This document shows, piece by piece, positions 4,705 to 50,302 of a stretch of DNA of 64,000 nucleotides. Under the pieces are notes generated by a model. That model saw nothing but the letters and a program-made list of their open reading frames with translations, ran no database searches and was not told where the DNA came from. Numbering within the stretch: position 1 is the stretch's first letter; each line of letters begins with the position of its first letter. Source of the DNA: Patescibacteria group bacterium (GTDB lineage Bacteria > Patescibacteriota > Patescibacteriia > UBA2591 > UBA4787); the NCBI GenBank assembly GCA_028715115.1, contig JAQUSN010000002.1, forward strand, positions 132,944 through 196,943, written 5' to 3'. Made by a program: the position numbers and the translations under genes.

Positions 4705-7700
4705 TTAATATTGCTTTGACAATAATTTTTGTTGAATTTTTTTAACGCTTTTTTCGATATTTTCTTCCATTAATTCTTCGGCTGTTTCGACGATTATTTT
4801 TGGCACGCCATCTTTGTCGGTTAAAGTTCCGGCCGCTAAAATAGTTTTATTTTCTTCAAAGAGATCAGGCATGACCAAAAGGGTTTTCGGGAACACTATG
4901 GCTTCGATGGAGCCGGATTCATCTTCTAATTTTATAAATAACATTGATTGCTTGTTTGAGGTTATAATTCTTTTAATATTAGTAATAATGCCGGCGATAA
5001 TCACGTAGCGCGTATTTAAGTTAGCGCCTTTTAAAAGTGAATTTATCGGTCTGGTCCATTTTTGTAATTCTTCTTTATGCTCTTTAAGCGGATGATCGGA
5101 GACGAATAATCCCAAAAGCTCTTTTTCCCAAAAAAGTTTTTGTTTTAATGGAGCAGGCTCGGTTTCGGTTAGGCGTAAACTGCTTTTGCCATTATTGTTT
5201 TGGAAAGAGCCAAAGAGATTTGTTTGGCCGTTCTGATGGTCTTGTTGTAACTTTTTATTGAAGTCAAGCAAAACCTCCATATTAACCAATAATTTATTTC
5301 TTTCGCCAAACTGGTCGAGGGATCCGGATTTTATAAAACTCTCAAGAGATTTTTTATTTAAGTCTTTTGTTTTAACGCGCGACAGAAAATCATCAAGTCC
5401 TTGATAGGCGCCGTTGGCTTTTCGTTCGGCAATAACTTCTTTAACAATACCTTCTCCGACATTTTTAATGGCTAGCAATCCGAATCTTATTTTTTTTGCT
5501 CCAACTACGGTAAAATTTTCTAAACTTTCGTTAATGTCGGGCGGGAGCACCTCCAATCCCATTTTTTTGCATTCTTCAACTTCAATAGCAATACGATCGC
5601 TGTCGTTTTGGTCGGAAGTTAAAAGAGCGGCCATAAATTCGGTGGGGTAGTTTGCCTTGAGATAGGCGGTTTGATAAGCGATTACGGCATAACAAGTAGC
5701 ATGTGATTTATTAAAACCATAACCGGCAAATGGTTCAATGAATTGCCAGACTCTTTCGGCCACTGAGCGATCGACGTTATTATTTATACATCCTTTGATG
5801 AATTTTACTTTTTGTTCTTGCAATAATTTGGCGATTTTTTTACCTACGGCTTTTCTCAAGACATCAGCTTCGGCCAAGGTGAAGCCTGCCAAGGCTCTAA
5901 CGGTTAGTAAAAGTTGTTCTTGATAAACGGCAATGCCATAAGTATTTTCCAGGATTGGTTTAAGTTTCGGATGCAAATAACTGGGTTCTTTTAATCCGTT
6001 TTTGGCGGCAATATAATCAGGGATAAGCTCCATCGGGCCGGGACGATACAAAGCAACCATGGCGATAATATCTTCCATCTGCGTTGGCTTTAATTGTTTT
6101 AGATATCGCCTCATGCCGCCGCTTTCAAATTGGAAAACGCCGATAGTGTAAGCAGCTTGGAATAATTTAAGAGTTTTCGGATCATTGAGCGGCAAATTAT
6201 CGAGATCAATTTCTTCTTTATAAATTCTTTTAATGATATTAAGCGCGGTTTCGATGAGCGTTAAATTTTTTAAACCCAAAAAGTCCATTTTCAACAAGCC
6301 CAATGCCTCCACGGCGTGCATCTCATATTGAGTGATGATAGTTTTTTCCGTGCCGGAAACATCATATTGTACCGGAACATATTGATCCAACGGTTCGGGC
6401 GTGATAACAATACCGCAGGCATGTTTAGACGCGTGGCGGGCGACGCCTTCTAGTTTTATTGCCGCGTTAATTATTTTTTTCACGTCAGAATTGGTGTCAT
6501 AATAATTTTTTAACTCAGATACTTTACTTAACGCTTCGCCCAATTTCATATTCATGGGAATCATTTTGGCCAACTTGTCGCAAAAGCTATAAGGATAATC
6601 CAAGACGCGACCGACGTCGCGCACCGCGGCGCGGGCAGCCATCGTCCCGAAAGTGATAATTTGCGCCACATGATCGCGGCCATATTTATTTTCAACATAA
6701 TGTATTACTTCATCGCGCCTGATATCGGCAAAATCTAAGTCAATATCAGGCATGGAGATTCTCTCCGGGTTTAAAAATCTTTCAAAAACTAAACCATAAG
6801 GCAGAGGATCGATATTAGTAATATTCAAAATATATGAAACGATTGAGCCGGCGGCTGAACCTCGGCCCGGTCCGACGACGATGCCATGTTCTTTAGCCCA
6901 CATAACAAAATCTTGGACAATTAAAAAGTAAGAAGCAAAGCCGGTTTTTTCGATAACGCTTAATTCGTATTTTAACCGTTCCATTACCTCGGGATTTTTG
7001 TCAGGATAGCGATGGGGCAGTCTCTCATAGCATAAATTACATAGGTAATCAAAGGGTGTTTCTCCTTCGGGCAGAGCAAAATAAGGGAGCTTGGTTTTAC
7101 CTAATTCTATCTCCAGGTTACAGGCATCGACGATTTTTTGCGTATTGGCAATGACTTCAGGATGATCCTTAAAGGCCTCTTCTATCATTTCTGGCGAACG
7201 GAAAGAATAGTCATCGCCCATCATATAAATCCGGTTATCGGTTTCTGATTTTTTTCTCTTCGTTTGCAGGCACAAAAGGATGTCTTGAATTTCAGCGTCT
7301 TCCTGGTGAATATAGTGGCAGTCGTTAGAGGCCACGATTGGAATATCGAATTTTTTGCTAAGCTCAAACATTTTTTTGTTAACGATTGATTGTTCCGGTT
7401 CGCCAGGATGGTGCTGTACTTCCAAATAAAAATTATCAGGGCCAAAAATTTCTTTATAATCTTGCAGGGCGCTTTCTAATTTGGCAGTTTGATTATTAAT
7501 TATTAATTTTGAAATTTCTCCGCCCAGACAAGCGCTCATGCCAATTAATCCTTGTGAATATTTTTTTAACGTCGGTTTATCGATTCTTGGTTTATAATAA
7601 AAACCCTCGAGGTGGGCAATGCTCGTGAGTTTAATTAAATTTTTGTATCCAATTTCATCTTTGGCAAGGAGCACCAGATGATAGGGCCGTTCGTCAATTT

Positions 7701-12001: not shown

Positions 12002-12031
12002 AATGAGTAGCTTAAAACTCATTTTTATTTT
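12002..12031 (+). terminator. Intrinsic terminator after the alpha/beta hydrolase gene (aatgagt / actcatt, then a T-run).
   Basis: 7-bp stem followed by tttatttt. Confidence 0.6.
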
Positions 12032-12039
12032 AAAAGAAA

Positions 12040-12064
12040 CCGGCGCGGAACTAGTCCGCGCCGG
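12040..12064 (-). terminator. Intrinsic terminator for the minus-strand GC-rich operon (ccggcgcgga / tccgcgccgg). The stop codon sits in its loop and a T-rich run follows on the minus strand.
   Basis: Perfect 10-bp GC stem. Confidence 0.6.
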
Positions 12065-12269
12065 GAGATGGTTCTTGCTGCTGGAAGAGTGCCTTGTTCG
12101 GCATGCCGTCGGTTATGACTACGAGAACAGAGATGAGGGCACTGCCTATCTGCCACAGGATGAGTCTGATCACGAAAGGGCCCGGCATCATACAGAGCCC
12201 GATAGTGAGTCCAAGCCAGGCGCCTATGATAGACCAGAATATCACGTCTCTTGTCCCTAGATCCCTCAT
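12051..12269 (-). CDS. GC-rich small 2-TM membrane protein (72 aa), second gene of a two-gene GC-rich operon.
   Basis: Its ATG overlaps the upstream stop (ATGA). It has two hydrophobic helices and is visibly GC-rich in an AT-rich genome. Confidence 0.5.
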   Translation of the reverse strand: MRDLGTRDVIFWSIIGAWLGLTIGLCMMPGPFVIRLILWQIGSALISVLVVITDGMPNKALFQQQEPSPGAD

Positions 12270-12490
12270 GACGTCCCCGTAGGGCGGGCGTCAAGAGGCG
12301 TTTTTTCCGTAGCGATTTCGTACAAGAAAACCAGGATCAGGCTGATCACTAACCAGGCGCTGGTCAGTAACGGGACGCCCAGGCCGATGCACAGAACCTT
12401 CCATAGGTTCAGCATGTCGAAGTGGCAGATCCAGATGACGTACTTGATGCACGTCACGAACCAGACGATGAAACACACTAGAGAAATCAC
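12266..12490 (-). CDS. GC-rich small 2-TM membrane protein (74 aa; weak resemblance to PLD_N/YxlE-type small membrane proteins).
   Basis: GTG start with AAGGAGG 5 nt upstream. A promoter-like TTGACA ... TATAAT element lies upstream on the minus strand. GC-rich. Confidence 0.5.
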   Translation of the reverse strand: MISLVCFIVWFVTCIKYVIWICHFDMLNLWKVLCIGLGVPLLTSAWLVISLILVFLYEIATEKTPLDARPTGTS

Positions 12491-12577
12491 TCCTGCCTCC
12501 TTAGTTAGGTTGTATTTAATATTATATATTTTTGGTTAATTGTCAATCCATTTATACACCGAATATCTTAAATAACC

Positions 12578-20315: not shown

Positions 20316-22034
20316 ATGACCGTACAAGAAATAAAAAATCATCTTTTACAAATCCTAAAAAACAATTTACCAGAATTGTCGGGTAATGTTAATTTAGAAT
20401 TAGAAATTCCGCCGCAATCGGAAATGGGGCATCTGGCCATTGGTTGTTTTGAAATAGGCAGAATGACCAAGCATACACCCGGGAAAATTGCCACCGAATT
20501 GGCAAAAAAAATTCAAAGCGACGAAGTTATAGATAAGGTTAAACATACTGGACCTTATCTTAATTTTTTTCTAAAAAAAGACGTTTGGTTTAAATCAGTT
20601 TGCGATGAGATTTTAGCGACTGACAGCGTTTTTGGCCAGGCCGAAGACGGCAAAGGCAAAAGAATAATGATAGAATATTCTGGTCCCAACACCAACAAAC
20701 CACAGCACATTGGCCATTTGAGAAATGATTTTTTAGGTATGTCTGTGGCCAACCTATTTGCCGAATTAAATTTTGAGGTTATTAGAGTTAATTTAGTTAA
20801 TGATAGGGGTATCCATATTTGTAAATCAATGCTCGCTTATAAAAAATGGGGAGAAGATAAAACTCCGGAAAGCGAAAAAATAAAAGGAGATCATTTTGTT
20901 GGAAATTATTATGTGATGTTCACACAAAAGGCCAAAGAAGATCAGACTTTACTGGATGAAGCGCAAGAAATGCTCGTGAAATGGGAGTCGGGTGATAATG
21001 AAGTTATGGCCTTATGGCAAAAAATGAACAAGTGGGCGGTTGATGGCCTAAAAGAGACATATAAAAAGATTAACGTTGAATTCGATAAATATTATTACGA
21101 AAGCGAAACCTACAAACTCGGCAAAGACATAGTTTTAAAAGCATTAAAGGAAGGTTTGATTTATAAACGTGAAGATGGTGCAATTGAAATAGATTTAACG
21201 CCATATAATTTGGATAAAAAAGTTTTAATGCGAGCTGATGGCACTAGCGTTTATGTAACTCAAGATCTAGCCTTGGCAAAGTTAAGACAAGACGAATTTA
21301 GCCCCGATAGAGCTATTTATGTTGTTGGTTCAGAACAAGAGTATTATTTTAAGACCCTATTTACAATTTTAGCAATTTTTGGTTATGAATGGGCAAAAAA
21401 TTTATATCACTTATCGTATGGGATGGTATCTTTGCCTGATGGAAGATTGAAATCCAGAGAGGGTAGCGTTGCGGATGCCGATGATTTAATTGCTGAATTA
21501 GAAAATTTAGCCAAGGGTGAAGTCTTAGGCAGAAACAAAGAAATTACGCTGATAGAGGTTTCCGAACGGGCGGAAAAAATTGCTATGGCCGCGATAAAAT
21601 TTTATTTTCTTAAGATTAATCCTAAACAAAACATGGAATTTAATCCTGAAGAGTCAATTTCTTTGGACGGTGCGACCGGACCTTACATACAATATACTTA
21701 TGCTCGTATCCAAAGTATTTTGAAAAAAGCGCAAACTTTGCCGCAAGACGTTGATTACGGATGTTTAGGTGAACCCGGCGAAATCGAACTGGTTAAAATG
21801 TTGTTTATTTTTCCAGATGTGATAAAGCGCAGCGCCTTATCCATGGATCCGTCTTATTTGGCAAATTATTTATTAAAACTTTGCCAATATCTCAACGAAT
21901 TTTATCATCAACATCAGATTTTAGCTGCGGAAGAAAAATTAAAAAACGCTAGATTGAATTTAGTTAGTGCCGTGGCCAAGATAATTAATAAGGGTCTAAA
22001 TATTTTAGGCATCGAAACTTTAGATAGAATGTGA
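20316..22034 (+). CDS. argS: Arginyl-tRNA synthetase.
   Basis: HIGH motif (PNTNKPQHIGHLRN) and full-length ArgRS similarity. Confidence 0.95.
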   Translation: MTVQEIKNHLLQILKNNLPELSGNVNLELEIPPQSEMGHLAIGCFEIGRMTKHTPGKIATELAKKIQSDEVIDKVKHTGPYLNFFLKKDVWFKSVCDEILATDSVFGQAEDGKGKRIMIEYSGPNTNKPQHIGHLRNDFLGMSVANLFAELNFEVIRVNLVNDRGIHICKSMLAYKKWGEDKTPESEKIKGDHFVGNYYVMFTQKAKEDQTLLDEAQEMLVKWESGDNEVMALWQKMNKWAVDGLKETYKKINVEFDKYYYESETYKLGKDIVLKALKEGLIYKREDGAIEIDLTPYNLDKKVLMRADGTSVYVTQDLALAKLRQDEFSPDRAIYVVGSEQEYYFKTLFTILAIFGYEWAKNLYHLSYGMVSLPDGRLKSREGSVADADDLIAELENLAKGEVLGRNKEITLIEVSERAEKIAMAAIKFYFLKINPKQNMEFNPEESISLDGATGPYIQYTYARIQSILKKAQTLPQDVDYGCLGEPGEIELVKMLFIFPDVIKRSALSMDPSYLANYLLKLCQYLNEFYHQHQILAAEEKLKNARLNLVSAVAKIINKGLNILGIETLDRM

Positions 22035-22187
22035 ATGAGACTTGGTTTGCAATTTGTGATTGCAAGCCTTAGTCGGAATTCATCCGCCTACTGGCGGATA
22101 ACAATTTAATTAGTTATAGATGAATTTTAGTCCGTATATCGGGCCGATGAGTATAATCATTTAAATCGTTTAATATAATTTAAAAGT

Positions 22188-22892
22188 ATGGCAAACAAAA
22201 AGACCAAGAAGAACAAGACTATTATTTTTTCCATGGGCGGATCTATTGTCGTCCCGGATGAAATCGACGTTAAGTTCTTGAAAGTAATCAAAGGCTTTAT
22301 TTTAAATCTTTTAAGTCGCGGTTATCGATTGGTTATTATTATCGGCGGGGGAGAGTTGAGCAAAAAATACAATCAAGCGGCCAAAGCTTTATCGACCGTG
22401 ACCAATACTGATTTGGATTGGATGGGCATTGCTTGTACTAGAGTTAATGCTGAACTCGTGCGCGTAATTTTATCCAAGTATGCTTATCCAGAAGTTATCG
22501 CTGACCAAAATAAAATTAAAAATATCGGCAAATATAAATTAGTTTTGGCTTGCGGTTTAAAACCAGGCCAATCAACTGATGGCCAGGCCGTGGGTTGGGC
22601 GAAGAAATTGGGCGCTAAGGAAATTATTAACCTAACTAATCTTGACCGTGCTTATACCGCCGACCCAAAAAAAGATAAGAATGCCAAACCGCTGGATAAT
22701 GTCAGTTGGGCGCAATATAGAAAAATAGTCGGCGATAAATGGATTCCGCGTTTATCAACTCCATTTGATCCGACTGCTTCGAAATTAGCGCAAAAATATG
22801 GCATGCGCGTAGCGGTTTTGAACGGCCGAAAACTACAGAACCTGAAAAATTATTTGGCCGGCAAAAAATTTATCGGTACGCTTATTGAATAA
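22188..22892 (+). CDS. pyrH: UMP kinase (amino-acid-kinase family, archaeal-like short N-terminus).
   Basis: Gly-rich ATP loops (GGS...IIIGGGE), STDGQAVGWA and TADPKKD motifs. Confidence 0.75.
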   Translation: MANKKTKKNKTIIFSMGGSIVVPDEIDVKFLKVIKGFILNLLSRGYRLVIIIGGGELSKKYNQAAKALSTVTNTDLDWMGIACTRVNAELVRVILSKYAYPEVIADQNKIKNIGKYKLVLACGLKPGQSTDGQAVGWAKKLGAKEIINLTNLDRAYTADPKKDKNAKPLDNVSWAQYRKIVGDKWIPRLSTPFDPTASKLAQKYGMRVAVLNGRKLQNLKNYLAGKKFIGTLIE

Positions 22893-22915
22893 AAATATAT
22901 ATAAAATATATTTTC

Positions 22916-22945
22916 AAAAAATGAGTCAGTGATGGCTCATTTTTT
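22916..22945 (+). terminator. Intrinsic terminator after pyrH (aaaaatgag / ctcattttt).
   Basis: Stem-loop plus T-run. Confidence 0.55.
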
Positions 22946-22958
22946 GATTATAAAGGGG

Positions 22959-22987
22959 TTGACAAAATCATAAAAATGCGTTAATAT
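22959..22987 (+). promoter_or_regulatory. Consensus promoter for the GC-rich gene (TTGACA, 17 nt, TAATAT).
   Basis: Seen directly in the sequence. Confidence 0.55.
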
Positions 22988-23049
22988 AATAAAAGTGGCG
23001 GCATAAGTCGCTGCAAATTCCGATTATTTAGATAACGAAAGGAGTCCTC

Positions 23050-23427
23050 GTGGACGAAGCCCTGATCGGATTGATTATCCCCAAGTCTCCTTGGGCTATG
23101 GCCAAGGAGGCGAATACGCTGGGTGCGCTGATAACCATACTGCGCACTTACTACTTCTTCATGGTGGGCGTGCGCGACTGGAGACAGGTCGCAAACAACA
23201 TCAACGAGACATCGGTGCAGATTGTGGAAGAAACATCCAGCTGCGTAAGAGCAGAGGTTGATTTCACGGTTATGACCGATGCAGGTCTCTTCATCGGCGC
23301 GATGGCCGTGCACGTCAAGGCGCTCAATGCAACTTTGGCCGACAGCAGAATGACACAGCTGTCGACCTGGCTACAAAGAGCGATCGGCAACAGTACGTTC
23401 GTTCAGGTGATCCTGAGGACGAGATAG
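23050..23427 (+). CDS. GC-rich hypothetical protein (125 aa).
   Basis: GTG start with AAAGGAG 5 nt upstream. Consensus promoter and downstream terminator. Visibly GC-rich. No motif recognised. Confidence 0.5.
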   Translation: MDEALIGLIIPKSPWAMAKEANTLGALITILRTYYFFMVGVRDWRQVANNINETSVQIVEETSSCVRAEVDFTVMTDAGLFIGAMAVHVKALNATLADSRMTQLSTWLQRAIGNSTFVQVILRTR

Positions 23428-23446
23428 ACGGAGGTTTGACCATTCG

Positions 23447-23477
23447 GAGCCGTCGGCTTAGGCCGGCGGCTCTTTTC
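23447..23477 (+). terminator. Intrinsic terminator (gagccgtcggc / gccggcggctc, then a T-run).
   Basis: GC stem plus T-run. Confidence 0.55.
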
Positions 23478-23496
23478 TAATTATGCACAATTTCAA

Positions 23497-23727
23497 TTGA
23501 CGCAAATAAATAAGCAGAATATAATAAAAGAGATGGGGACTGGCACCACGCCTCAACTGCTGGGCCTTTAATGCCTCATCGAACGCATAAACTGGAGGTT
23601 ATCTATGCTGAGACGGCTTCTGAAGGACGAGAGCGGATAGTCGAGACGACGAAGAAGCGGAGCTCGCATAACGCGAGCTCGCACTCCCGGGGCGCACTGC
23701 GCTCTGGGAGTTTTTTTATGGAGTGGA
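23497..23727 (+). other. GC-rich mini transcription unit: exact TTGACG, 17 nt, TATAAT promoter (23497-23525); SD GGAGG; 11-codon ORF MLRRLLKDESG (23605-23640); strong 12-bp terminator plus T7 (23694-23727).
   Basis: All elements seen in the sequence. Possible small RNA or leader peptide. Confidence 0.35.
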
Positions 23728-23767
23728 TAACTTTAATTTACAAATTTTATTTATAAAATATAATAAA

Positions 23768-23985
23768 AAAAGACAAAGACAGAATCATTGTGTAAGTACA
23801 CCGGGTCTACGGATCCGGTGGGCATACCCAGGGAGGTATGAGATTGGTTTGGTAAGCTGAATGCCCGGCTAGCCCTTGTTCCGAATTCTTAGGAGCCCGG
23901 AGCCGAGGTACGCCAGGGAGAGCAGCGCCAGCCCCGGGGATGCAGATTGAGCTTCAGCTCTCTGCTCCCCGGGTATTATTTTTTT
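23768..23985 (+). ncRNA. Candidate GC-rich structured RNA of about 220 nt ending in an intrinsic terminator (cccgggga / tccccggg, then T7). Identity unknown.
   Basis: Non-coding and roughly 60% GC by eye. A promoter-like TTTACA ... TATAAT element lies upstream. The strong terminator at 23933-23985 is immediately before the rplJ promoter. Confidence 0.3.
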
Positions 23986-24008
23986 ATCTGGTCTGGGGAT
24001 AACTCTCG

Positions 24009-24204
24009 TTGACACTTAATTATTTTTGATTATACTAATTATATCTTAACCGTAGACAGTGTGGCCTTCGACGAATCGTCGGAGTTAATACACCAGCCCA
24101 CCGAGGTCAAAAGACATTTTATTGTCTGCGGTTATCCGCAGATTATTTATTATTACGAATTACATATTTTTAGATTTAATTTTTGGTTTTTAATTTTACT
24201 TTAT
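24009..24204 (+). promoter_or_regulatory. rplJ promoter (TTGACA, 16 nt, TATACT) and structured L10 leader with hairpins cgacgaatcgtcg and ctgcggttatccgcag.
   Basis: Promoter hexamers and several stem-loops in the 170-nt 5' UTR. Consistent with autoregulatory L10 leaders. Confidence 0.5.
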
Positions 24205-24732
24205 ATGGCTCTTACCCGAACAAAAAAAGAAAGCCTATTTACGAACATTAAGGACTTAGTCGCCAAGATGAAAAGTTTAGTTTTGATTGATTATTATGGC
24301 TTGAAGGTAAAAGAAGTAAATCAATTGCGGCAGGAACTTAGAAAAAATAATTGCCAATACGTCGTGGCTAAAAAAACTTTATTGAAAAAAGCTTTTAAAG
24401 AACAGGGACTCGAAGATGATTCAGTTGATAAGCTTCAGGGTGGCATTGGTATGGCCCTGGGATTAGAAGACGAGGTTGCTCCGGCTCGTGTCATTACTGC
24501 TTTTAAAAAAGATCATGACAAAATGAATATTCACGGCGGCATTTTTAATAAAGCTTTTATTACCCTAGAACAAGTTAAACAAATTTCCATTTTGCCGTCT
24601 AAAGAGCAATTATTGGCCCAAGTGGTTTATACCATCAAGGCGCCGCTTCAAAACATGGTTGGCGCAATGCATGGCAATTTAAGAAAATTGGTTTATGCTT
24701 TGCAGGCCGTGACTGATAAAAAGAAAAATTAA
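24205..24732 (+). CDS. rplJ: Ribosomal protein L10.
   Basis: L10 similarity from MALTRTKKE. The ATG at 24205 was chosen over the extended ORF that starts at 24061. Confidence 0.9.
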   Translation: MALTRTKKESLFTNIKDLVAKMKSLVLIDYYGLKVKEVNQLRQELRKNNCQYVVAKKTLLKKAFKEQGLEDDSVDKLQGGIGMALGLEDEVAPARVITAFKKDHDKMNIHGGIFNKAFITLEQVKQISILPSKEQLLAQVVYTIKAPLQNMVGAMHGNLRKLVYALQAVTDKKKN

Positions 24733-24792
24733 TAAATAATATTAAGGCGAATTGAAGCAATTAAGCAATCATTCGCAAAAAGAGATAATTAT

Positions 24793-25167
24793 ATGGATAA
24801 ATTCAAGGATTTAATGGAACAAATTGAGAAGATGACCGTTTTGGAATTGTCTGAGTTCGTCAAAGCTTTAGAAGAAAAGTTTGGCGTGACTGCTCAGGCC
24901 CCGATGATGATGGCTGCTGCCGGTCCGGCTGCTGCCGCTGCTCCGGCTGAAGAAAAGACCAGCTTCAATATTGAGTTGACTGAATCCGGCGCGAATAAAA
25001 TCGGCGTGATTAAAGTCATCCGCGAAGTCACTGCTTTAGGCTTGAAAGAAGCCAAAGATTTAGTTGACGGCGCTCCCAAAATGGTGAAAGAAGGAGCTGA
25101 CAAGACTGAAGCCGAAGAAATGAAGAAAAAGTTAGAAGCCGCTGGCGCGAAAGTCACCCTGAAGTAA
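24793..25167 (+). CDS. rplL: Ribosomal protein L7/L12.
   Basis: Ala-rich hinge and a conserved C-terminal domain. Confidence 0.95.
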
Positions 25168-25370
25168 AGACCTCAGCCCTTTGTTGCTAGCGCTCGCTCG
25201 GAAAAGAAAAAATAAATTTTTTCTTTCTCTCTCGCTTGCTTAGCAATAGCACTGATCAGCAATCATTAGAGAATCCACCAAACTCGTGGAGTGGGCATAG
25301 TTCCCACAAATGGCCCGAGTTGGTGGATTTCTTATTATAGCTCTTTGTATCTGATACATTAGAGCTATAA

Positions 25371-25404
25371 TAACCCTAAGCGAGCTTGCGAGCGCAGGGT
25401 AACC
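25371..25404 (+). repeat. 34-bp repeat unit taaccctaagcgagcttgcgagcgcagggtaacc (copy 1).
   Basis: Direct repeat shared with 25504-25537. Degenerate copies are at 25547-25577 and 25586-25610. Confidence 0.7.
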
Positions 25405-25503
25405 TTTAAACACTCTCAACTTTAGTTGGGAGCATGACTTGTGATTAGAAACAAAAAACCCCTGAGGAGGCTATGCGACGTAGGGTAACTTAAAGAAAAT
25501 AAA

Positions 25504-25537
25504 TAACCCTAAGCGAGTCCTCGAGCGCAGGGTTACC
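25504..25537 (+). repeat. 34-bp repeat unit taaccctaagcgagtcctcgagcgcagggttacc (copy 2).
   Basis: About 30 of 34 positions identical to copy 1. Confidence 0.7.
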
Positions 25538-25621
25538 ATAATACTTTATTGAGTGAGTCTGCGAGCGCAGAGTAACCTTAATGCCTTATTGAGCGAGTCG
25601 CAGGGCAGCCATTTGAACATA

Positions 25622-25654
25622 AAAAAACGAGCTCAAGTAAGCTCGTTTTTTATT
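25622..25654. terminator. Bidirectional terminator (aaaaacgagct / agctcgttttt).
   Basis: Perfect stem flanked by an A-run and a T-run, between a + region and the - gene ending at 25670. Confidence 0.6.
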
Positions 25655-25669
25655 TAAATATAGAAGCCC

Positions 25670-27976
25670 TTATTTTAATCCGACCTGATAAACTTTTTTA
25701 TCATTTAAGATCCAGGCCGTATCAGCTTTATCGTTGATGACAAAATCAGTCGTAGCGCCCAGTTCCGGAGCGGAAATTTGTTTAATCAATTCTCCTGTTT
25801 TATCGAAGATAACCAATCTTTGGTTGGTCGGCTCTAAGACGTAAAGATATTTATGGTCAGCATCGGTGAAAATTTTAGTCGGCTTTTGCAAAACCGGCAA
25901 AATATTTTTCAGGTTAAAATTTTGTTTGGCCCCACGATAGAATTTTATCATTTGTCCGTTATCAAGCATTACATATATGGCTCCATCAGCGGCAAAAGAA
26001 ACTCCGTTGTTTATTCCGGCCGCGCTGGTCAGCCAATTTTCTTCTTTGCCAAATCCGCTGGCAGTTTTGGTGTATTTTAAAATCAATGAATCTTTAGCGT
26101 CTAGGATATAAAGTTTGTCAGCATATACCAGAAAATCTTGCATGGTCAAATTTTGATGGCTGGTCTGAAGGTCAATGCTGGTAAAATTATCATTAACGGT
26201 ATTATAAGTTGCCAGACCATTGTTGTTATGAGAAAAGAGTAGGGAGTCTTTATCGAGCGGCGTGATTTCTTTCAAGTATCCCACGTCGACCGAACCTTTG
26301 TGCGCCAGATCAACCTTGTTGGTAGCTAAGTCGATTTTATAAATATAATTATTGGTCGGGTTAAAGAAATAAAGGAAACTGCCCAGCTTGGTTAATCCGC
26401 CGACCGAGATTTGCTTATCAACCTTACTTAAATCAGCCACGAGTTTTAAATTCGAGCTTATTTCCTGGTGTAAAATCGGCGCAGCCTGTTTGTCGATATC
26501 GGCTTTTAACTCGTTATAAGCCGTTCTTTGCGCTTCAGTTTGTTGCGGCAAGGTTTTTAGGAGTATGGTTATTTGGCTATAAATGCTGGTAGCCTTGGCC
26601 TTATCTTTATAAATCAAAGCCGAATACATTTGTTGTTCTAGGTCTTTAATTTGTTGGATGGAAACGTTTGATTTTTTAGCGTTTTGGCGGTTAAATTCCT
26701 GGCGGCAGGCGATAATTAGGCCGGTGGTTAAGAGAATGGCCACAATTAACAAGAGAATAATCAACAGCCGTTGCAAAGGAGAAAACCGCTGCGAACGGGC
26801 AGAAATTTTACCAAAGATTTGTTTTGCTTTATTGGTCGTTGGCGTGGTGTTTGTTTTTTTAATGCTGTTAAATAAATATTTAACGCCGTGATAAATCGTT
26901 GCGCCAATAGTTAAAATAATTCTCCAGATTAATGGTGGCGGTGGCGGTTCGAGTCCGTCCGGTTTGCCGCCAATAGAAAGTTCTTGCAAAATAGCTTCAG
27001 ATTCTTCAGAGCTAACAGGAGTAACTTGGTTTTTTATTTTGGGAGAAACAATAGAACGGCTTTCTTCTTGGTCTTCGACAATAATTTTATCATCTTTTGT
27101 TTCTTCTGGATTTTCTTCGGCTGAAACTTCGGAAGCTTCCTCGTCTTTTTTTTCTTCAATTATTTTTTCAACCGGTTGTTTATTTTTTTTACCGCGTTTT
27201 TGTTTCTTAATTGGTTCGGGGATTGGGGTTGGTTCTGACTCAGGGGTTGATTCTGGTTCTTTAACTTCAGCTGGCGCTTCTTTGACCGGCTCGGATTTTT
27301 CTTCAAGCTCTTCTTTTATTATCGGATTTTTTATGGTGATTAAACCGAGTGAAACTTTCTGGCTGAATTTTTTGAGCGCGGCATTTAATTTTTTTATTGA
27401 AATTTCATTTTTGTCGCGCAGATTTTCTTCAATGGTTTCTTCCGGTAGATAATCGAACAGATTGCTGGTGCCAAAAAACAATTGGTCGTTGTCTTCGAGC
27501 GTGCCGCTGATGATATTGGAAAATTTTCTGCTTTTATTTTCTTGGCCGAGCTCAATTAACTCTCCGTTTTGTCCGAGATAGGCGAGTGGCGAACCAATTT
27601 GGGCAAAGTGCACGTTGGGAGAATCAAAAACAGCGATGATGACGTTAAGAGTTTTATCTTTTAGGTCATAACCGCTGAAAAATTTATTCAAGTCCTGCAA
27701 AAAACTTTCAAATCTTTCGTACACGCCGGTAAAAGGCGCCTCGGAACCGAAATAAGCTTCTTTGATTAGGGTGATTAATCCTTCACTTAAACCCTTGGTC
27801 CAAACCAGGTCTTCGGGCGTGGGCACCAGCTTATATTCAATTTCTAACAAAAAGCTCATTCTTTCTTTCTTGTCCGAGTTGTTAGTATCTCCATAATTAA
27901 AAGCAGACACAAACTTACGCGTTCGGTCTGGATTTGAAAGGGATACTTTTTCGATATTTATCTTGTAGTTATCCAT
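25670..27976 (-). CDS. Large membrane protein. It has an N-terminal cytoplasmic domain, a Pro/Glu/Lys-rich low-complexity linker, one TM helix and a C-terminal beta-propeller-like (NHL/YVTN-like) repeat domain.
   Basis: 768-aa ORF. Repeated L[YI]xLDxxxxxL motifs in the C-terminal third. PPPPP and EPxxE low-complexity stretch. Central hydrophobic helix. Confidence 0.6.
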   Translation of the reverse strand: MDNYKINIEKVSLSNPDRTRKFVSAFNYGDTNNSDKKERMSFLLEIEYKLVPTPEDLVWTKGLSEGLITLIKEAYFGSEAPFTGVYERFESFLQDLNKFFSGYDLKDKTLNVIIAVFDSPNVHFAQIGSPLAYLGQNGELIELGQENKSRKFSNIISGTLEDNDQLFFGTSNLFDYLPEETIEENLRDKNEISIKKLNAALKKFSQKVSLGLITIKNPIIKEELEEKSEPVKEAPAEVKEPESTPESEPTPIPEPIKKQKRGKKNKQPVEKIIEEKKDEEASEVSAEENPEETKDDKIIVEDQEESRSIVSPKIKNQVTPVSSEESEAILQELSIGGKPDGLEPPPPPLIWRIILTIGATIYHGVKYLFNSIKKTNTTPTTNKAKQIFGKISARSQRFSPLQRLLIILLLIVAILLTTGLIIACRQEFNRQNAKKSNVSIQQIKDLEQQMYSALIYKDKAKATSIYSQITILLKTLPQQTEAQRTAYNELKADIDKQAAPILHQEISSNLKLVADLSKVDKQISVGGLTKLGSFLYFFNPTNNYIYKIDLATNKVDLAHKGSVDVGYLKEITPLDKDSLLFSHNNNGLATYNTVNDNFTSIDLQTSHQNLTMQDFLVYADKLYILDAKDSLILKYTKTASGFGKEENWLTSAAGINNGVSFAADGAIYVMLDNGQMIKFYRGAKQNFNLKNILPVLQKPTKIFTDADHKYLYVLEPTNQRLVIFDKTGELIKQISAPELGATTDFVINDKADTAWILNDKKVYQVGLK

Positions 27977-44877: not shown

Positions 44878-44905
44878 AAAAACGAACCGAATTGGTTCGT
44901 TTTTA
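44878..44905 (+). terminator. Intrinsic terminator (aacgaacc / ggttcgtt, then a T-run).
   Basis: Perfect 8-bp stem followed by ttttt. Confidence 0.65.
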
Positions 44906-44964
44906 TATAAGCAAACCCCCCGACCAAACGTCGAGGGGGTGCACGTAAGTGCATTGAACCTCCT

Positions 44965-45174
44965 TTAGCTCTGAAATGTTATCTTGCGCCAGGTTATCCT
45001 GACGAGCGTGACCGGTATCAGAACGGCTATCGTGGCATAGAACCGGAGTCGTTTGAGCGCCTTGTCCATCCATTCGGCAATTACCACCATCAGCCAGATG
45101 ATGAGCTTGCCCAGTTCAGCAGACTCAGCGCTCGACGGTCCGTAGGGATCGGTGGGCGAGAAGTCGTTGTTCAT
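44965..45174 (-). CDS. GC-rich small 2-TM membrane protein (69 aa).
   Basis: ATG with AGGAG 5 nt upstream. It is driven from a palindromic divergent promoter. A GC-rich hairpin terminator lies downstream (44907-44940). GC-rich. Confidence 0.5.
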   Translation of the reverse strand: MNNDFSPTDPYGPSSAESAELGKLIIWLMVVIAEWMDKALKRLRFYATIAVLIPVTLVRITWRKITFQS

Positions 45175-45192
45175 AATAACTCCTATATAATA

Positions 45193-45251
45193 AATATAGC
45201 ATATTTTTTACACTTAGTCAATATTGACAAAAACTAAAAATATGCTATATT
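45193..45251. promoter_or_regulatory. Nested palindrome forming symmetric divergent promoters. The outer 16-bp inverted repeat (aatatagcatattttt / aaaaatatgctatatt) supplies a TATATT -10 on both strands. The central palindrome gtcaatattgac supplies TTGACA (+) and TTGACT (-).
   Basis: Seen directly in the sequence. Spacings are 16 nt (+) and 17 nt (-). Confidence 0.6.
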
Positions 45252-45276
45252 AAAAATAACCTTAAAGGAGGTTCGT

Positions 45277-45654
45277 ATGTTCGAACGTGCAGATTCCGGA
45301 AGCGGTCATCGTTTCCCCGAACCGCCCGAGCCGGCAGAAAACTTCCGCTGGTTCATGGAAGCCAGCCATGCCCACCGCGTCCTACCGATCCGCGTAGTCG
45401 GTGGCCCCCTGAAGTCCCTTAACGGTGACGGGCTCTTGAGCCTTGAGTTCGCTCTGGCCCGCAGAAGCGGCCGCCGGAATGAGCCCATGGTCGCCGAGAT
45501 CCACGTCCTCAGTCACGAGCAGGTTACCGACAGCATGATGTCGGTAATCGGTCCGGTAGTCGCCGTTGACGGTTTGCGAACCGAGTCGCACCGGTCGGCG
45601 ACAATCACCTTCGATCACATCAAGCAGACGGGAACGTTGCGGTTTCTGCAGTAG
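45277..45654 (+). CDS. GC-rich hypothetical soluble protein (125 aa).
   Basis: AAAGGAGG 7 nt before the ATG. A perfect terminator lies downstream. One 60-nt stretch of the ORF counted by hand was 37/60 GC. Confidence 0.55.
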   Translation: MFERADSGSGHRFPEPPEPAENFRWFMEASHAHRVLPIRVVGGPLKSLNGDGLLSLEFALARRSGRRNEPMVAEIHVLSHEQVTDSMMSVIGPVVAVDGLRTESHRSATITFDHIKQTGTLRFLQ

Positions 45655-45669
45655 AGTTCCCGAGCACCC

Positions 45670-45702
45670 GAGCGCCGAGGTCCTCTCGGCGCTCTTCTTT
45701 TT
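45670..45702 (+). terminator. Intrinsic terminator (gagcgccgag / ctcggcgctc, loop gtcct, then a T-run).
   Basis: Perfect 10-bp stem. Confidence 0.7.
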
Positions 45703-45726
45703 ATATATTTTAAAACAAAAAGAGAA

Positions 45727-45754
45727 GGCGAGCCGCAAAGAACTGCGGCTCGCC
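45727..45754 (-). terminator. Perfect 10-bp hairpin (ggcgagccgc / gcggctcgcc) with a T-rich run on the minus-strand side. Candidate terminator of a minus-strand transcript from the 45.76-46.1 kb structured region.
   Basis: Seen directly in the sequence. Confidence 0.4.
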
Positions 45755-45757
45755 ATG

Positions 45758-45960
45758 TAACGGGAGGGCGGACCTGCCCACAAACGGTCGACTTGACTTT
45801 GCTCCCCTTGCCCAAGTCAGTGGTCGACTGTCCGCCTCCTGGCGTACCCCGTGAAGTACATCGATTCAGTCAATCCTGGCACATATTTCCGTCACAGGAC
45901 TCGCAGTAGAGTGACAGAAAAGCGCGGGTCCTTCGTTCACCACGCCCCAAAGGAGGTTAT
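45758..45960. other. GC-rich structured noncoding segment. It holds a long imperfect hairpin (gggagggcggac ... gtccgcctcc enclosing gtcgacttgactt / aagtcagtggtcgac) and further stem-loops. Candidate sRNA or cis element.
   Basis: No ORF has start signals. It contains an orphan AAAGGAGG with no start codon in range. Several long complementary segments. Confidence 0.3.
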
Positions 45961-46213
45961 ACGATATAGGGACAGGATTTAACCGATGTACGGAAGGAAA
46001 CCCATTTAAGGGAAAAGGGACGCCAATAACACCTCCGATTGTGATATAATAGCAGAAAGGTAAAATTTTGTCAAGTCCCAAAGTGGCATTATAAGGTGGT
46101 TTTATTAACATTTAGTCAGAGCTAAACTTGATGATTTGCACATTAATGCTTCCAATTATTTAGTAAAATGGTATTATATATATTATTAGTTTAATCATTA
46201 AAAACATATAATT

Positions 46214-46681
46214 ATGAAAAAGGGCCAGGTCGTTATCTTTTTATTAACAATTATTGTCGCGCTAACCGGCAGTGTTATTACAGATTTAGGTATGAACTGG
46301 TACGGAATGATTAATTTGCCCAATTTTACGCCGCCAGGGGCTATGATTGGTCTTGTTTGGACGCTTATATTTATTTTAGCAATGGTTTCGGCGATGATTA
46401 TCTGGAGAAGAAAAGAATTTAGCAGAATTTATCGCCAACAAATAATGATTTTATTCGGCGTGAATGCATTTTTGAATATTTTTTGGAGTTTTTTATTTTT
46501 CTCTGCGCATAGTTTATATTTTTCTATTTGGGAAGCGGGGCTATTGGGTTTATCAGTATTGGCTCTAATTATATCTATTTGGCCAAAATCCAAGACAGCC
46601 GCCAGCTTATTAATTCCATATTTTCTTTGGGTTAGCTTTGCTACATATTTAACATATTCAGTTTGGTTATTAAATAAATAA
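46214..46681 (+). CDS. tspO: TspO/MBR-family tryptophan-rich sensory protein.
   Basis: Five-TM Trp-rich protein with TspO motifs (LNIFWSFLFF, PYFLWVSFATYL). Confidence 0.8.
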   Translation: MKKGQVVIFLLTIIVALTGSVITDLGMNWYGMINLPNFTPPGAMIGLVWTLIFILAMVSAMIIWRRKEFSRIYRQQIMILFGVNAFLNIFWSFLFFSAHSLYFSIWEAGLLGLSVLALIISIWPKSKTAASLLIPYFLWVSFATYLTYSVWLLNK

Positions 46682-46711
46682 AAAAGATTGAGAACAATCT
46701 TTGTAAATAAA

Positions 46712-46745
46712 GGGCGGGACTCCGGTTAGGGAGCCCCGCTTTTGA
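46712..46745. terminator. Bidirectional terminator between tspO (+) and the GC-rich minus-strand gene (gcgggactcc / ggagccccgc, then tttt).
   Basis: Imperfect GC stem with T-runs on both sides. Confidence 0.5.
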
Positions 46746-46762
46746 AAGCCGAACGGCCGCGA

Positions 46763-47044
46763 TCAGGTTGTGGGCTTGGGGGCGGGGACCACGTGGGCCC
46801 AGAAGTTGCAGCCCAGAGGGTCGCCGATCATGAGTGCATCACCGCGCCCCGGCTTCTTCTCGGAGATCACGAGAAAGCCTGTTCCGTTGGGCGGAGGGGA
46901 GACCCACCTCTGGTTCGTCGGATCGAAGCCGACCATTGCCTCGGAATAGGCCGGGCTTATCTCGTGGGGTTGAGAGGGGATGACGGTGCCGTCAGCGGGG
47001 AAGACAACCGTTCCGCTTACCGGCGTAGTTGCGCCTTCGGTCAC
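46763..47044 (-). CDS. GC-rich hypothetical protein (93 aa).
   Basis: GTG start with AAGGAGG 5 nt upstream. A TTGACA, 16 nt, TATATT promoter on the minus strand. GC-rich. Confidence 0.55.
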   Translation of the reverse strand: MTEGATTPVSGTVVFPADGTVIPSQPHEISPAYSEAMVGFDPTNQRWVSPPPNGTGFLVISEKKPGRGDALMIGDPLGCNFWAHVVPAPKPTT

Positions 47045-47093
47045 GAATACCTCCTTAGGGTAATGAATGTAGGGGACTTACTCGAACATTTAT

Positions 47094-47172
47094 AATATAC
47101 AACTTTTATACATTTTGTCAAGATTACAGGTGAATTTTATTAACTTGACTTTTGACTAAAATCGTTTATAAT
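47094..47172. promoter_or_regulatory. AT-rich divergent promoter region. Minus strand: TTGACA (47116-47121) and TATATT (47094-47099). Plus strand: TTGACT (47145-47150), 16 nt, TATAAT (47167-47172).
   Basis: Seen directly in the sequence. Confidence 0.55.
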
Positions 47173-47197
47173 ATAAAACAACAGGAGGAATTACCGA

Positions 47198-47629
47198 ATG
47201 AAGTCATTGCTAACCGCAATCGTGATCGTGGTGGTAATAATCCTCCCGTCACGACTGGCGGCACAACCCGTTTCCCCGTGGTCCAAGGTCTGTCTGGAGA
47301 GCTCGTCCGACGAATGGAGCAGGTGCGAAAGATACACGCGCCTGATTGATTCGTCAGGATCATGGATTGTCATCAAGAGGACGCTTTCTCGCGATGGGAT
47401 ACTGGTTCTCGACGTTTCCTACCAGGCGAGTACCGACAGTATCAAGTGGGCATGTTATGATGTCTGTGATGATACGGTCAGCGGCACTGGTGACATTGAA
47501 GCGATCCTCGGCGACATCTACGACTACTGGCAGGATGGCGTCTTCGCAGACCTACCGATCGTGGTTCGTGGAGGGGTGTGGTCAATGATCGCCCCCTTCA
47601 AGCTATCGGAGGGCGAGCTTAGTGAGTAG
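47198..47629 (+). CDS. GC-rich secreted protein (143 aa; signal peptide, 4 Cys).
   Basis: AGGAGG 8 nt before the ATG. N-terminal signal peptide (MKSLLTAIVIVVVIILPSRLAAQP). GC-rich. Terminator at 47634-47667. Confidence 0.55.
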   Translation: MKSLLTAIVIVVVIILPSRLAAQPVSPWSKVCLESSSDEWSRCERYTRLIDSSGSWIVIKRTLSRDGILVLDVSYQASTDSIKWACYDVCDDTVSGTGDIEAILGDIYDYWQDGVFADLPIVVRGGVWSMIAPFKLSEGELSE

Positions 47630-47745
47630 TATCGGCCGGGCATGGCGCGAAAGCGTCATTCCCGGCCTTATATTTTAATCCCCAGTCGCGATTGACAAAC
47701 TCGGTTTATGCTTCATAATTAAATATTAATTCGTGATTTCATTTA

Positions 47746-48660: not shown

Positions 48661-50037
48661 TTGTTTTTTACGAAAAATATTATGAAGATTAAATTTTGGG
48701 GCGGAGTAGGGGAGGTTACCGGTTCAAATCATCTTTTAGAAGATCAAAATAATAAAATTTTGATCGATTGCGGTATGTTTCAGGGCGCCGACCAGGCTTT
48801 CGAAAAAAATAGCGCCGATTTTTCATACGACCCTCATGAAATTGAGGGTGTTTTAATTACTCATGCCCATATCGACCATATCGGTCGTTTACCTAAGTTA
48901 GTTAGAGACGGTTTTGATAAAAACATCTATTCTACGGCGCCCACCAAGGATATGGCTTATCATCTTTTGCTGGATTCTTATGCGATTATGAGCAAAAACT
49001 TTGCCACCAAAAATATGGTTATTTATGATGAGGCCGACATTGCAAAAACGATGTCTTTATGGAAAGTTGTGCCATATCACCATAAATTTTCTATTAAAAA
49101 TTTTGACATAGAATATATTGACGCCGGTCATATTTTAGGTTCAGCGTCGCTGAGAATAACTTCAGGCAATAATAAAATATTATTTTCCGGCGATTTGGGT
49201 AATGTACCTTCGCCAATAGTAAAAGATACGGAATATTTTACTGAATCAGCCGATTACGCATTGCTTGAATCGACCTATGGCGCTAGGATTCATGAATCAG
49301 CCTCCAATAGAAAACAATTATTGAAAGACCACATCATCGATGCTGTTCGTAAAAAATCTGTTTTATTAATTCCGGCTTTTGCCATGGAACGTACACAAGA
49401 ATTATTATATGAAATTAACGATATGGTAGAAAAAAAAGAATTGCCCGCCGTGCCGATTTTTGTTGATAGTTCGTTATCTATTAAATTAACTAAAATCTAC
49501 GATAAATATTCAAGTGATCCAAATTTTTTCGACCAAGAAGCCATAAAATTAATTAAAGCAGGCGACGATATTTTTAATTTTGCCGGTTTAACATATACTC
49601 CGACCGTTGAAGAATCGAAAAAAATAAATGATTTTCCGGCGCCCAAAGTCATTATTGCCAGTTCAGGTATGAGCGAAGGCGGTCGCATTATTCATCATGA
49701 AGTCAGATATTTACCTGATCCCAATGCCACGATTTTGTTTGTCGGATTTCAAGCGTATGGCTCCAAAGGCAGGCAGGTTTTAGATGGAGCCAAAAAAATA
49801 CAAATTTTAGGCCAAGAGATAGATATTAAAGCGCAAGTTAAAAAGATTGGCGGATATTCTGCTCATGCTGATCAACCCTTGCTTTTAAAATGGGCAAAAG
49901 AATCTAAGAATGGCTTGAAGAAAATGTTTATTACCCATGGCGACTTGGATCAGGCTCAGATTTTAGCTAAAAAAGTCAACGACGAGACCGGCGTAGAAAC
50001 AATTATTCCTGGATTTGGCCAGACCATCGAATTATAA
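48661..50037 (+). CDS. Metallo-beta-lactamase / beta-CASP family ribonuclease (RNase J / CPSF-like).
   Basis: HAHIDHIG (HxHxDH) and a C-terminal beta-CASP region with GYSAHAD. Confidence 0.8.
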   Translation: MFFTKNIMKIKFWGGVGEVTGSNHLLEDQNNKILIDCGMFQGADQAFEKNSADFSYDPHEIEGVLITHAHIDHIGRLPKLVRDGFDKNIYSTAPTKDMAYHLLLDSYAIMSKNFATKNMVIYDEADIAKTMSLWKVVPYHHKFSIKNFDIEYIDAGHILGSASLRITSGNNKILFSGDLGNVPSPIVKDTEYFTESADYALLESTYGARIHESASNRKQLLKDHIIDAVRKKSVLLIPAFAMERTQELLYEINDMVEKKELPAVPIFVDSSLSIKLTKIYDKYSSDPNFFDQEAIKLIKAGDDIFNFAGLTYTPTVEESKKINDFPAPKVIIASSGMSEGGRIIHHEVRYLPDPNATILFVGFQAYGSKGRQVLDGAKKIQILGQEIDIKAQVKKIGGYSAHADQPLLLKWAKESKNGLKKMFITHGDLDQAQILAKKVNDETGVETIIPGFGQTIEL

Positions 50038-50052
50038 ATTATTTATAAGAAA

Positions 50053-50074
50053 GCCGCCCCGGTTAAGGGGCGGC
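50053..50074. terminator. Bidirectional terminator (gccgcccc / ggggcggc). It overlaps the 3' coding end of the minus-strand Cys-rich gene.
   Basis: Perfect 8-bp GC stem between convergent genes. Confidence 0.6.
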
Positions 50075-50302
50075 AGTAAACATGGACGGGGATTGACCTC
50101 TGTGGCGGACCCGTGTCCGGGTTTGTCTGGGCCGAACGAGCGGGGAGATGGGGCAGGCGATCATCTTCTCTTGATAGTATCTTGAGCAAGTAGCGCAGCA
50201 GGACTTAAGACATTTGTTGGTCTTGGGGCATCCTTTTGCCAGGTTACATCCTTCGCAGCATGGATGTAGTTTGCCACCACAGCCAGCAGGGTTACTGTCC
50301 AT
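50063..50302 (-). CDS. GC-rich Cys-rich small protein (79 aa from the SD-preceded Met; 11 Cys in CC/CxxC patterns, metallothionein-like N-terminus, basic tail).
   Basis: GGAGG 7 nt upstream of the ATG at 50302. The ORF-track ATG at 50326 has no SD. A TTGACA lies at about 50356-50361 on the minus strand. GC-rich. The last 8 codons are encoded by the terminator hairpin. Confidence 0.45.
   Translation of the reverse strand: MDSNPAGCGGKLHPCCEGCNLAKGCPKTNKCLKSCCATCSRYYQEKMIACPISPLVRPRQTRTRVRHRGQSPSMFTAAP

Follow-up and report, generated by a model that had tools for sequence, protein, structure and literature searches.

A GC-rich block upstream of rplJ in a Patescibacteria genome comprises one orphan protein gene and two short promoter- and terminator-bounded units

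Introduction

What is encoded by the GC-rich DNA that separates a UMP-kinase-like gene from rplJ in a Patescibacteria (candidate phyla radiation, CPR) genome, and do its short non-coding segments represent conserved RNAs? The DNA in question, a block at 22959-23990, lies within a 64-kb stretch of a metagenome-assembled genome (MAG), the whole of which is referred to here as the window. The GC content of the window is 37.6% overall, while it reaches 0.52-0.58 across 23000-24000. Locally, argS (20316-22034) is followed by the UMP-kinase-like gene (PF00696, 22188-22892), the block, an L10 leader, rplJ and rplL. The block consists of three tandem units on the + strand, U1, U2 and U3, in each of which a GC-rich body lies between a near-consensus sigma-70 promoter and an intrinsic terminator.

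A first-pass annotation, made from the sequence by itself, had reported a GC-rich block upstream of rplJ with one protein gene followed by two short separate units that resemble small RNAs (sRNAs). The anatomy it described is fully recovered here: every listed sequence feature was found in place, each unit possesses its own promoter and terminator, and neither of the two short units contains a credible long open reading frame (ORF). With regard to the nature of the block, we favour, with modest confidence, a horizontally acquired, moron-like, lineage-specific accessory island in which a functional orphan protein gene is accompanied by two short terminated transcripts without conserved function.

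Coding capacity of U1

The U1 ORF (23050-23427, + strand) encodes 125 amino acids (aa) from a GTG start codon, with an AGGAG motif located 5 nt upstream (23040-23044). An intrinsic terminator follows at 23446-23473 (+ strand), with a stem of 12 bp that includes 9 G-C pairs and is followed by TTTTCT. GC content by codon position is.50/.42/.70, purines occupy 71% of first positions, and the periodicity extends along the entire ORF. The composition of U1 is distinct from that of the host: GC at the third codon position (GC3) is 0.70 as opposed to 0.32-0.41 in the flanking host genes, and the Lys content is 2.4% compared to 9.6% in host genes. A similar deviation is seen in the ORFs of the GC-rich cassettes of the window as a group, which encode Lys by AAG in 90% of cases (host AAA 81%) and Leu by CTG/CTC in 65% (host TTA 41%), with a Lys content of 3.0% versus the 9.6% of the host.

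The U1 protein is identical to the NCBI entry 'MAG: hypothetical protein PHV78_03335 [Patescibacteria group bacterium]'. A search of 5.8 billion clustered proteins detected a single homologue, P0002 (JGI metagenome 3300075153), which has the same length and 78% identity. The 26 substitutions between U1 and P0002 have a mean BLOSUM62 score of +0.42, compared to -0.43 ± 0.30 for simulated random mutation, a value reached in only 0.3% of the simulations (p about 0.003). Furthermore, a stop codon was acquired in 68% of neutral U1 simulations. As judged by these sequence comparisons, U1 is a genuine protein gene under purifying selection, and the GC-rich 125-aa gene proposed for 23050-23427 by the first-pass annotation is supported by both the codon-position GC and the homologue of equal length. 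The P0002 contig contains different called neighbours, including a 134-aa gene 65 nt downstream. Given these different neighbours, and given that six-frame translations of U2 and U3 have no match among the same 5.8 billion proteins, U1 appears to move independently of U2 and U3.

The protein itself has no match in Pfam, PHROGs, PADLOC, NCBIfam or PDB sequences, with Pfam returning nothing at E<=1. A HMMER search of 1.84 billion representatives yielded only a weak summed match to a 9-repeat MBG (PF18676) adhesin (E 5.9e-4), a borderline similarity made up of four stretches with 29-34% identity. The AlphaFold model is weak (mean predicted local distance difference test score, pLDDT, of 56.8) and displays helices followed by three long strands; a Foldseek search with this model gave no match below E 0.03. 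No clear transmembrane segment is evident from hydropathy. Phage and plasmid records contain no match, nor do viral contigs. Scans of viral and metagenome contigs with the U1 protein alignment also led to no homologue of U2 or U3. Two segments of U1, 'GAAAGGAGUCC' and 'GUCGGCUUAG', bear a likeness by eye to the P4 strands of RNase P. This candidate was rejected, with no covariance-model support found and local pairings that do not fit.

Conservation of the block in related genomes

Four relatives (L003, L006, L010 and L011) were found by searching with the kinase, with orthologues at 88, 78, 61 and 59% identity on these contigs. The argS-kinase-rplJ-rplL order is kept in all four. In contrast, no similarity to U1, U2 or U3 was found in any of them, either by blastn (word size 7) or by Smith-Waterman alignment assessed against shuffles. 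The content of the slot between kinase and rplJ varies across the relatives and is unrelated to the block. In the closest relative, L003, it contains an AT-rich 164-aa ORF and an unrelated non-coding stretch of ~320 nt at ~50% GC. Nothing is present between the kinase gene and the promoters in L006, while L010 and L011 contain ORFs encoding 90-99-aa coiled-coil proteins. This spacer appears to act as a hotspot of variable insertions.

The ~320-nt stretch of L003 (6395-6725) is located directly upstream of the rplJ promoter, and its terminator-like hairpins face the - strand. It has no Rfam or tRNA match.

Anatomy, folding and homology of U2 and U3

The predicted U2 transcript (23531-23718, + strand) has a length of ~188 nt. 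It follows a TTGACG-17-TATAAT promoter (23497-23525, + strand, 11/12 match) and comprises a 5' hairpin, a GGAGG at 23594-23598, an ORF of 11 codons with the ATG at 23605 (23605-23640, + strand, MLRRLLKDESG), an 8-bp hairpin at 23660-23680, and a terminator (23683-23711, + strand) formed by a 13-bp hairpin and T7. The promoter, GGAGG, short ORF and terminator of this unit had each been described previously, the hairpin with a length of 12 bp. The predicted U3 transcript (23771-23985, + strand) is ~215 nt long and non-coding, with no ORF led by a Shine-Dalgarno (SD) sequence. A 9-bp hairpin with a UACG loop (23799-23820, + strand) is followed by a long central imperfect hairpin and by the terminator (23933-23973, + strand), in which 8-bp outer arms (23933-23940 and 23966-23973) enclose an inner stem ahead of a T-run at 23979-23985. 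This agrees with the earlier description of a non-coding third segment ending in a terminator with an 8-bp palindromic stem. The U3 promoter, TTTACA-16-TATAAT, had been missed.

When folding energies were compared to those of shuffled sequences, the complete units gave z values of -3.5 (U2) and -4.3 (U3) from the folding tool, and of -3.1 and -4.0 in a re-run. Without the terminator hairpins, the remaining bodies gave -1.35 (U2) and -2.38 (U3). For comparison, values from +0.39 to -2.5 were obtained for cassette ORFs and -2.28 for a fragment of the host kinase gene. The terminator-free U2 and U3 values fall within the range of the coding ORFs and host fragment, hence they provide no special structural signal. 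Both units were also considered as decayed ORFs. No codon periodicity was found in U2; the last 80 nt of U3 display a weak periodicity (GC by phase.81/.44/.62) that was judged insufficient, and which hints that U3 could retain the 3'-terminal part of what was once a GC-rich gene.

It was found that the 64-kb window has no Rfam match at the gathering score. Relaxing the threshold to E<=10 over 22850-24300, and over 23480-24000 as a separate sequence of 521 nt, yielded nothing credible within the block; the matches that overlap the block belong to sRNA families only and lie far below the gathering score. A cmscan of 23480-24000 had been proposed as a means to reveal a housekeeping RNA in the third segment, and it gave no such match. 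ARAGORN detected no tRNA or transfer-messenger RNA (tmRNA) in U2 or U3. The Rfam and ARAGORN results thus confirm that the short units do not match RNase P, signal recognition particle (SRP) RNA, tmRNA or 6S RNA; the first-pass annotation had been unable to match the third segment to any of these by conserved motifs. A segment of U3, 'CCAGGGAGAGCAGCGCC', resembles SRP domain IV by eye; it was discarded, as the covariance models lend it no support and the local pairings are unfit.

No homologue of U2 or U3 was found by blastn in phage and plasmid records, and viral contigs likewise gave none. Scans with one 20-mer per unit gave no match for U2 in genome contigs and one chance match (L012) for U3 in metagenome contigs. 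Furthermore, no similarity above shuffles was detected among U1, U2, U3, another apparently non-coding cassette of the window and the rplJ leader. Possible targets were considered through duplex energies, and neither the pairing of U2 or U3 to U1 mRNA and the rplJ leader, nor that between U2 and U3, is better than that of shuffled RNAs. A 19-nt complementarity between U3 and the rplJ leader (I9) is at chance level. GGA motifs, as might mark a CsrA sponge, number 6 per unit versus about 4 expected by our own count, which is not significant.

Promoters and the rplJ operator

The U1 promoter (22959-22995, + strand) can be read as TTGACA-17-TAATAT at 22959-22987 (10/12) or with TATAAT at 22985-22990 as the -10 element, with a AATATAATAAAAG box after TTGACA. 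This 13-mer is identical in the U1 and U2 promoters, and is present with 12/13 matches in that of U3 (repeat family D2). Across both strands of the window there are 15 promoter matches of at least 11/12, compared to 3.5 ± 1.7 in block shuffles, and roughly half coincide with GC-rich cassettes.

The U3 promoter (23725-23764, + strand, 11/12) consists of GGATAAC at 23725-23731, a -35 element TTTACA at 23737-23742, a 16-nt spacer and a -10 element TATAAT at 23759-23764. It duplicates the promoter and operator (GGATAAC-N5-TTKAC) that the lineage has at rplJ. The rplJ promoter proper (23997-24036, + strand; 24009-24036 in the consensus scan) contains the GGATAAC-N5-TTGACA operator and a -10 element TATACT, and forms the right edge of the island. 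Only two sites in the 64 kb correspond to the GGATAAC-N5-TTKAC pattern, located at the U3 promoter (23725) and the rplJ promoter (23997), while each relative has exactly one pattern match, at the rplJ-operon promoter. An alignment of this promoter family shows an invariant G-GGATAA-T ... TT-AC core. In L006, the promoter occurs as two tandem copies at a distance of ~95 nt, of which the second has the longer spacer, with no payload in between. The simplest reading is that the GC-rich payload and terminator of U3 lie between two rplJ promoter copies. As U3 is located between two promoter/operator copies, it would be driven by the upstream copy, with the downstream copy driving rplJ. The U3 terminator would end transcription ahead of the second copy, and U3 would presumably be co-regulated with rplJL.

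In extended form, the motif, in this lineage specific to rplJ-operon promoters, is (T)G(T/G)GGATAACT-N4-TTGACA, seen at 23725-23741 and 23997-24013 of the window and, in the relatives, at 6727 of L003, 5778 and ~5865 of L006, 3451 of L010 and 4621 of L011. It reads TGTGGATAA in L006 (second copy), L010 and L011, which we take to be the perfect reverse complement of the DnaA-box consensus TTATCCACA. On the basis of this pattern, the GGATAAC motif may be a candidate operator for DnaA or another regulator of the L10/L12 operon.

On its left, the island is bounded by the terminator of the UMP-kinase-like gene (22909-22952, + strand), a hairpin with a T-run that corresponds to inverted repeat I1 (20-nt arms, 85% complementary). 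An exact, AT-rich 12-nt direct repeat, TTTTTGATTATA, flanks the island on both sides (22941-22952 and 24023-24034, 1082 nt apart). The possibility that this repeat represents an att site or a target-site duplication was rejected: by our own estimate ~0.5 such repeats are expected by chance in AT-rich sequence, and its right-hand occurrence is part of the conserved rplJ promoter, where it overlaps the -10 region.

Similar islands in the window

Five GC-rich islands are present outside the long host genes, at 12004-12517, 22991-24042, 44883-46045, 46653-47725 and 49971-50336. Those other than the block, at least four in number and in a wider delimitation at 12004-12545, 44883-46074, 46653-47725 and 49971-50440, have peak GC contents up to 0.67 and combine an AT-rich consensus promoter, an SD sequence, a small GC-rich ORF and a terminator. 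Their ORFs encode 69, 125, 93, 143 and about 79-87 aa, the last being Cys-rich, as well as an overlapping 74/72-aa pair that is hydrophobic and membrane-like from a reading of the translations. Codon usage is foreign, with GC3 of 0.66-0.76 except for the Cys-rich 87-aa ORF (0.55). The four ORFs scanned with Pfam gave no match. One cassette unit (45727-46074, - strand) is apparently non-coding. Searches of the literature on Patescibacteria gave nothing relevant with respect to GC-rich islands or sRNAs. The block thus appears to be one case of a genome-wide habit of compositionally foreign, autonomous mini-cassettes, an aspect that escaped the first-pass annotation.

Elements downstream of the block

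An L10 leader (RF00557-like, 24032-24196, + strand) is located directly 5' of rplJ (24205-24732, + strand), itself followed by rplL (24793-25167, + strand). The leader scores 40.9 bits (E 8.2e-5) relative to a gathering score of 44. Its elements ACCGUAGACAG...CCGAGGU are conserved, and the leaders of the relatives have a common ACCGTAGACAG core. There is no second RF00557 match at E<=10, and U3 is hence no duplicate of the L10 leader. A scan of genome contigs with L10 gave no match. In L006, ~350 nt of GC-rich CGCAGACTTACGCGGA-type repeats (6040-6400) lie between the terminator hairpin of the L10 leader and the rplJ start codon.

The rplJ-rplL pair differs in its surroundings from that of most bacteria, with neither rplK-rplA upstream nor rpoB downstream (20316-27976). 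It is flanked by the UMP-kinase-like gene and by a convergent 768-aa gene of unknown function, and the relatives are arranged likewise. In the spacer after rplL (500 nt), a ~43-nt element that forms a hairpin (AATAACCCTAAGCGAG...GCGAGCGCAGGGTAACC) is present three times at 25369-25584, with identities of 65-100%. The core 17-mer of this element is absent elsewhere in the window, with 0 occurrences expected by chance.

Proposed model and alternative explanations

In our model of the accessory island, ~1 kb of horizontally acquired DNA would occupy the interval from the kinase terminator to the rplJ promoter and comprise three back-to-back autonomous units, each made up of a host-type sigma-70 promoter, a GC-rich payload and an intrinsic terminator. 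Each unit would be transcribed alone, with its terminator providing insulation from the neighbouring units and from rplJ. U1 would give rise to a 125-aa, probably soluble alpha+beta protein under purifying selection, while U2 and U3 would produce terminated RNAs of ~188 and ~215 nt. These are more readily viewed as accessory payloads or remnants of foreign DNA than as conserved housekeeping or regulatory RNAs.

Several observations weigh against this model. Neither a donor lineage nor an integrase, att site or phage gene was found. AT-rich, host-like promoters and spacers with a common 13-mer, AATATAATAAAAG, are odd for wholesale import from a GC-rich donor, and suggest either that promoters were duplicated locally or that the cassettes have a dedicated vehicle. 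The large DNA collections were scanned for U2 and U3 with only two 20-mers, one per unit. In addition, the GGAGG-6 nt-ATG arrangement of U2 is well placed, with a chance of about 0.02 by our own rough estimate, and U3 combines a C(UACG)G hairpin with a z of -2.4; either unit may have a function.

The same features are drawn upon by the alternative in which U2 and U3 act in trans as genuine regulatory sRNAs, young and confined to the lineage, with U2 perhaps serving a dual function through MLRRLLKDESG, and U3 co-regulated with rplJL via the GGATAAC operator. This is the main rival to our model, albeit an unlikely one. Near-consensus promoters and strong terminators delimit discrete units of 188 and 215 nt, and the complete units fold better than all 200 shuffles. 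The stable C(UACG)G hairpin of U3, the ideal SD-ATG spacing of U2 and the presence in the U3 promoter of an rplJ operator with just two sites in 64 kb are likewise consistent with regulatory RNAs. However, the terminator-free bodies fold as coding sequence does (z of -1.35 and -2.38), no complementarity above shuffles connects the units to U1 mRNA, to the rplJ leader or to each other, and both units are absent from relatives with 88% and 78% kinase identity. No homologue of either unit was found, and U2 and U3 are lacking from all four syntenic relatives. Hence, of the sRNA interpretation put forward by the first-pass annotation, the part that stands is the presence of separate, promoter- and terminator-bounded short units; given the unexceptional structure, absence from relatives and lack of an antisense target signal, the remainder is not supported. 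A broader interpretation would treat the block and its sister islands as undescribed, recombinase-less mini-cassettes of intergenic sites, each consisting of promoter, payload and terminator, with small orphan proteins or RNAs as payload. U3 would then be an RNA payload captured under a duplicated rplJ promoter with a DnaA-box-like operator, and thereby tied to ribosome synthesis. We regard this as speculative and improbable.

The absence of the units from close relatives is also the most decisive point with respect to a housekeeping RNA (6S, SRP, RNase P or tmRNA) so divergent in Patescibacteria as to escape the Rfam models. A length of ~190-215 nt, a high GC content in an AT-rich genome, strong promoters and the adjacent ribosomal-protein operon might all be expected of such an RNA, but an essential RNA would not be missing from close syntenic relatives, and this effectively refutes the proposal. 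It is further contradicted by the lack of any match at E<=10 with lax filters to 6S (RF00013), SRP (RF00169/RF01854), RNase P (RF00010/RF00011) or tmRNA (RF00023), by the ARAGORN result for tmRNA, and by the 5' and 3' ends of U2 and U3, which do not form the closing stem that 6S needs; we find it scarcely credible. U2 had also been proposed to be a leader peptide or a type I toxin-antisense locus. While a short SD-led ORF followed by two hairpins and a terminator might suggest a cis-regulatory attenuator or such a toxin-antitoxin locus, this is very improbable and the proposal fails on each count. MLRRLLKDESG is a hydrophilic, charged peptide of 11 aa and not a membrane toxin; the block has no promoter or terminator on the - strand, and hence no overlapping antisense unit. 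No regulated gene follows within the same unit, as the U2 terminator is succeeded by the independent promoter of the non-coding U3, and the U2 fold contains independent hairpins with no evident alternative anti-terminator pairing. Finally, the sharp GC contrast with the flanks could be taken as a sign of an assembly chimera or contaminant DNA. The identical block sequence is present in a contig of a further NCBI MAG (GCA_028713815.1) and in an independently assembled Logan contig, making a chimera unlikely. Moreover, the GC-rich bodies alternate with AT-rich, host-like promoters below the scale of read pairs, and the U3 promoter is homologous to the rplJ promoter of the host. An artefact can therefore be given next to no weight.

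In terms of the accessory-island model, the RNA-like stretches of high GC content adjacent to rplJ are a false lead in the search for missing CPR housekeeping RNAs, and would instead represent strain-specific accessory DNA. If such cassettes are indeed systematic, they would offer Patescibacteria a route by which small genes and RNAs of foreign origin are taken up and expressed. Co-regulation of U3 with the L10/L12 operon, if true, would raise the importance of this unit.

Comparison with known systems

Type I toxin-antitoxin loci differ from U2, which has neither a hydrophobic toxin peptide nor an overlapping or adjacent antisense RNA. Leader-peptide attenuators are distinguished from it by a regulated gene downstream in the unit and by alternative terminator/antiterminator pairings, both of which U2 lacks. 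Unlike integron gene cassettes, each cassette of the block has its own promoter, and the hairpins with T-runs are terminators; no integrase-like ORF was found among the ORFs of 19-28 kb, a region for which no attC-model search was made. The ribosomal protein L10 leader (RF00557) adjoins the block downstream and lies outside it, and U3 is not a copy of this element. Strain-specific intergenic sRNA genes are a parallel in that U2 and U3 lie between genes, span 188-215 nt and are bounded by a consensus promoter and terminator. They differ from such genes in having no conservation, covariation, structure beyond the terminator, target or Rfam family.

Phage morons are autonomous promoter-gene-terminator units of deviant base composition that are inserted between conserved genes. 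In contrast to morons, the block is located between chromosomal housekeeping genes with no phage or prophage, and has no match to PHROGs, phage records or viral contigs. Two of its three payloads are without a credible ORF, and its promoters look host-derived, one being a copy of the rplJ promoter. The similarities concern the organisation of the block. Every unit comes with a sigma-70 promoter and an intrinsic (factor-independent) terminator of its own, giving three pairs on the + strand, and the payloads are small orphans. The composition of the block is sharply distinct from that of its flanks in GC, GC3 and codon usage, and the units lie between genes that are adjacent in the relative L006.

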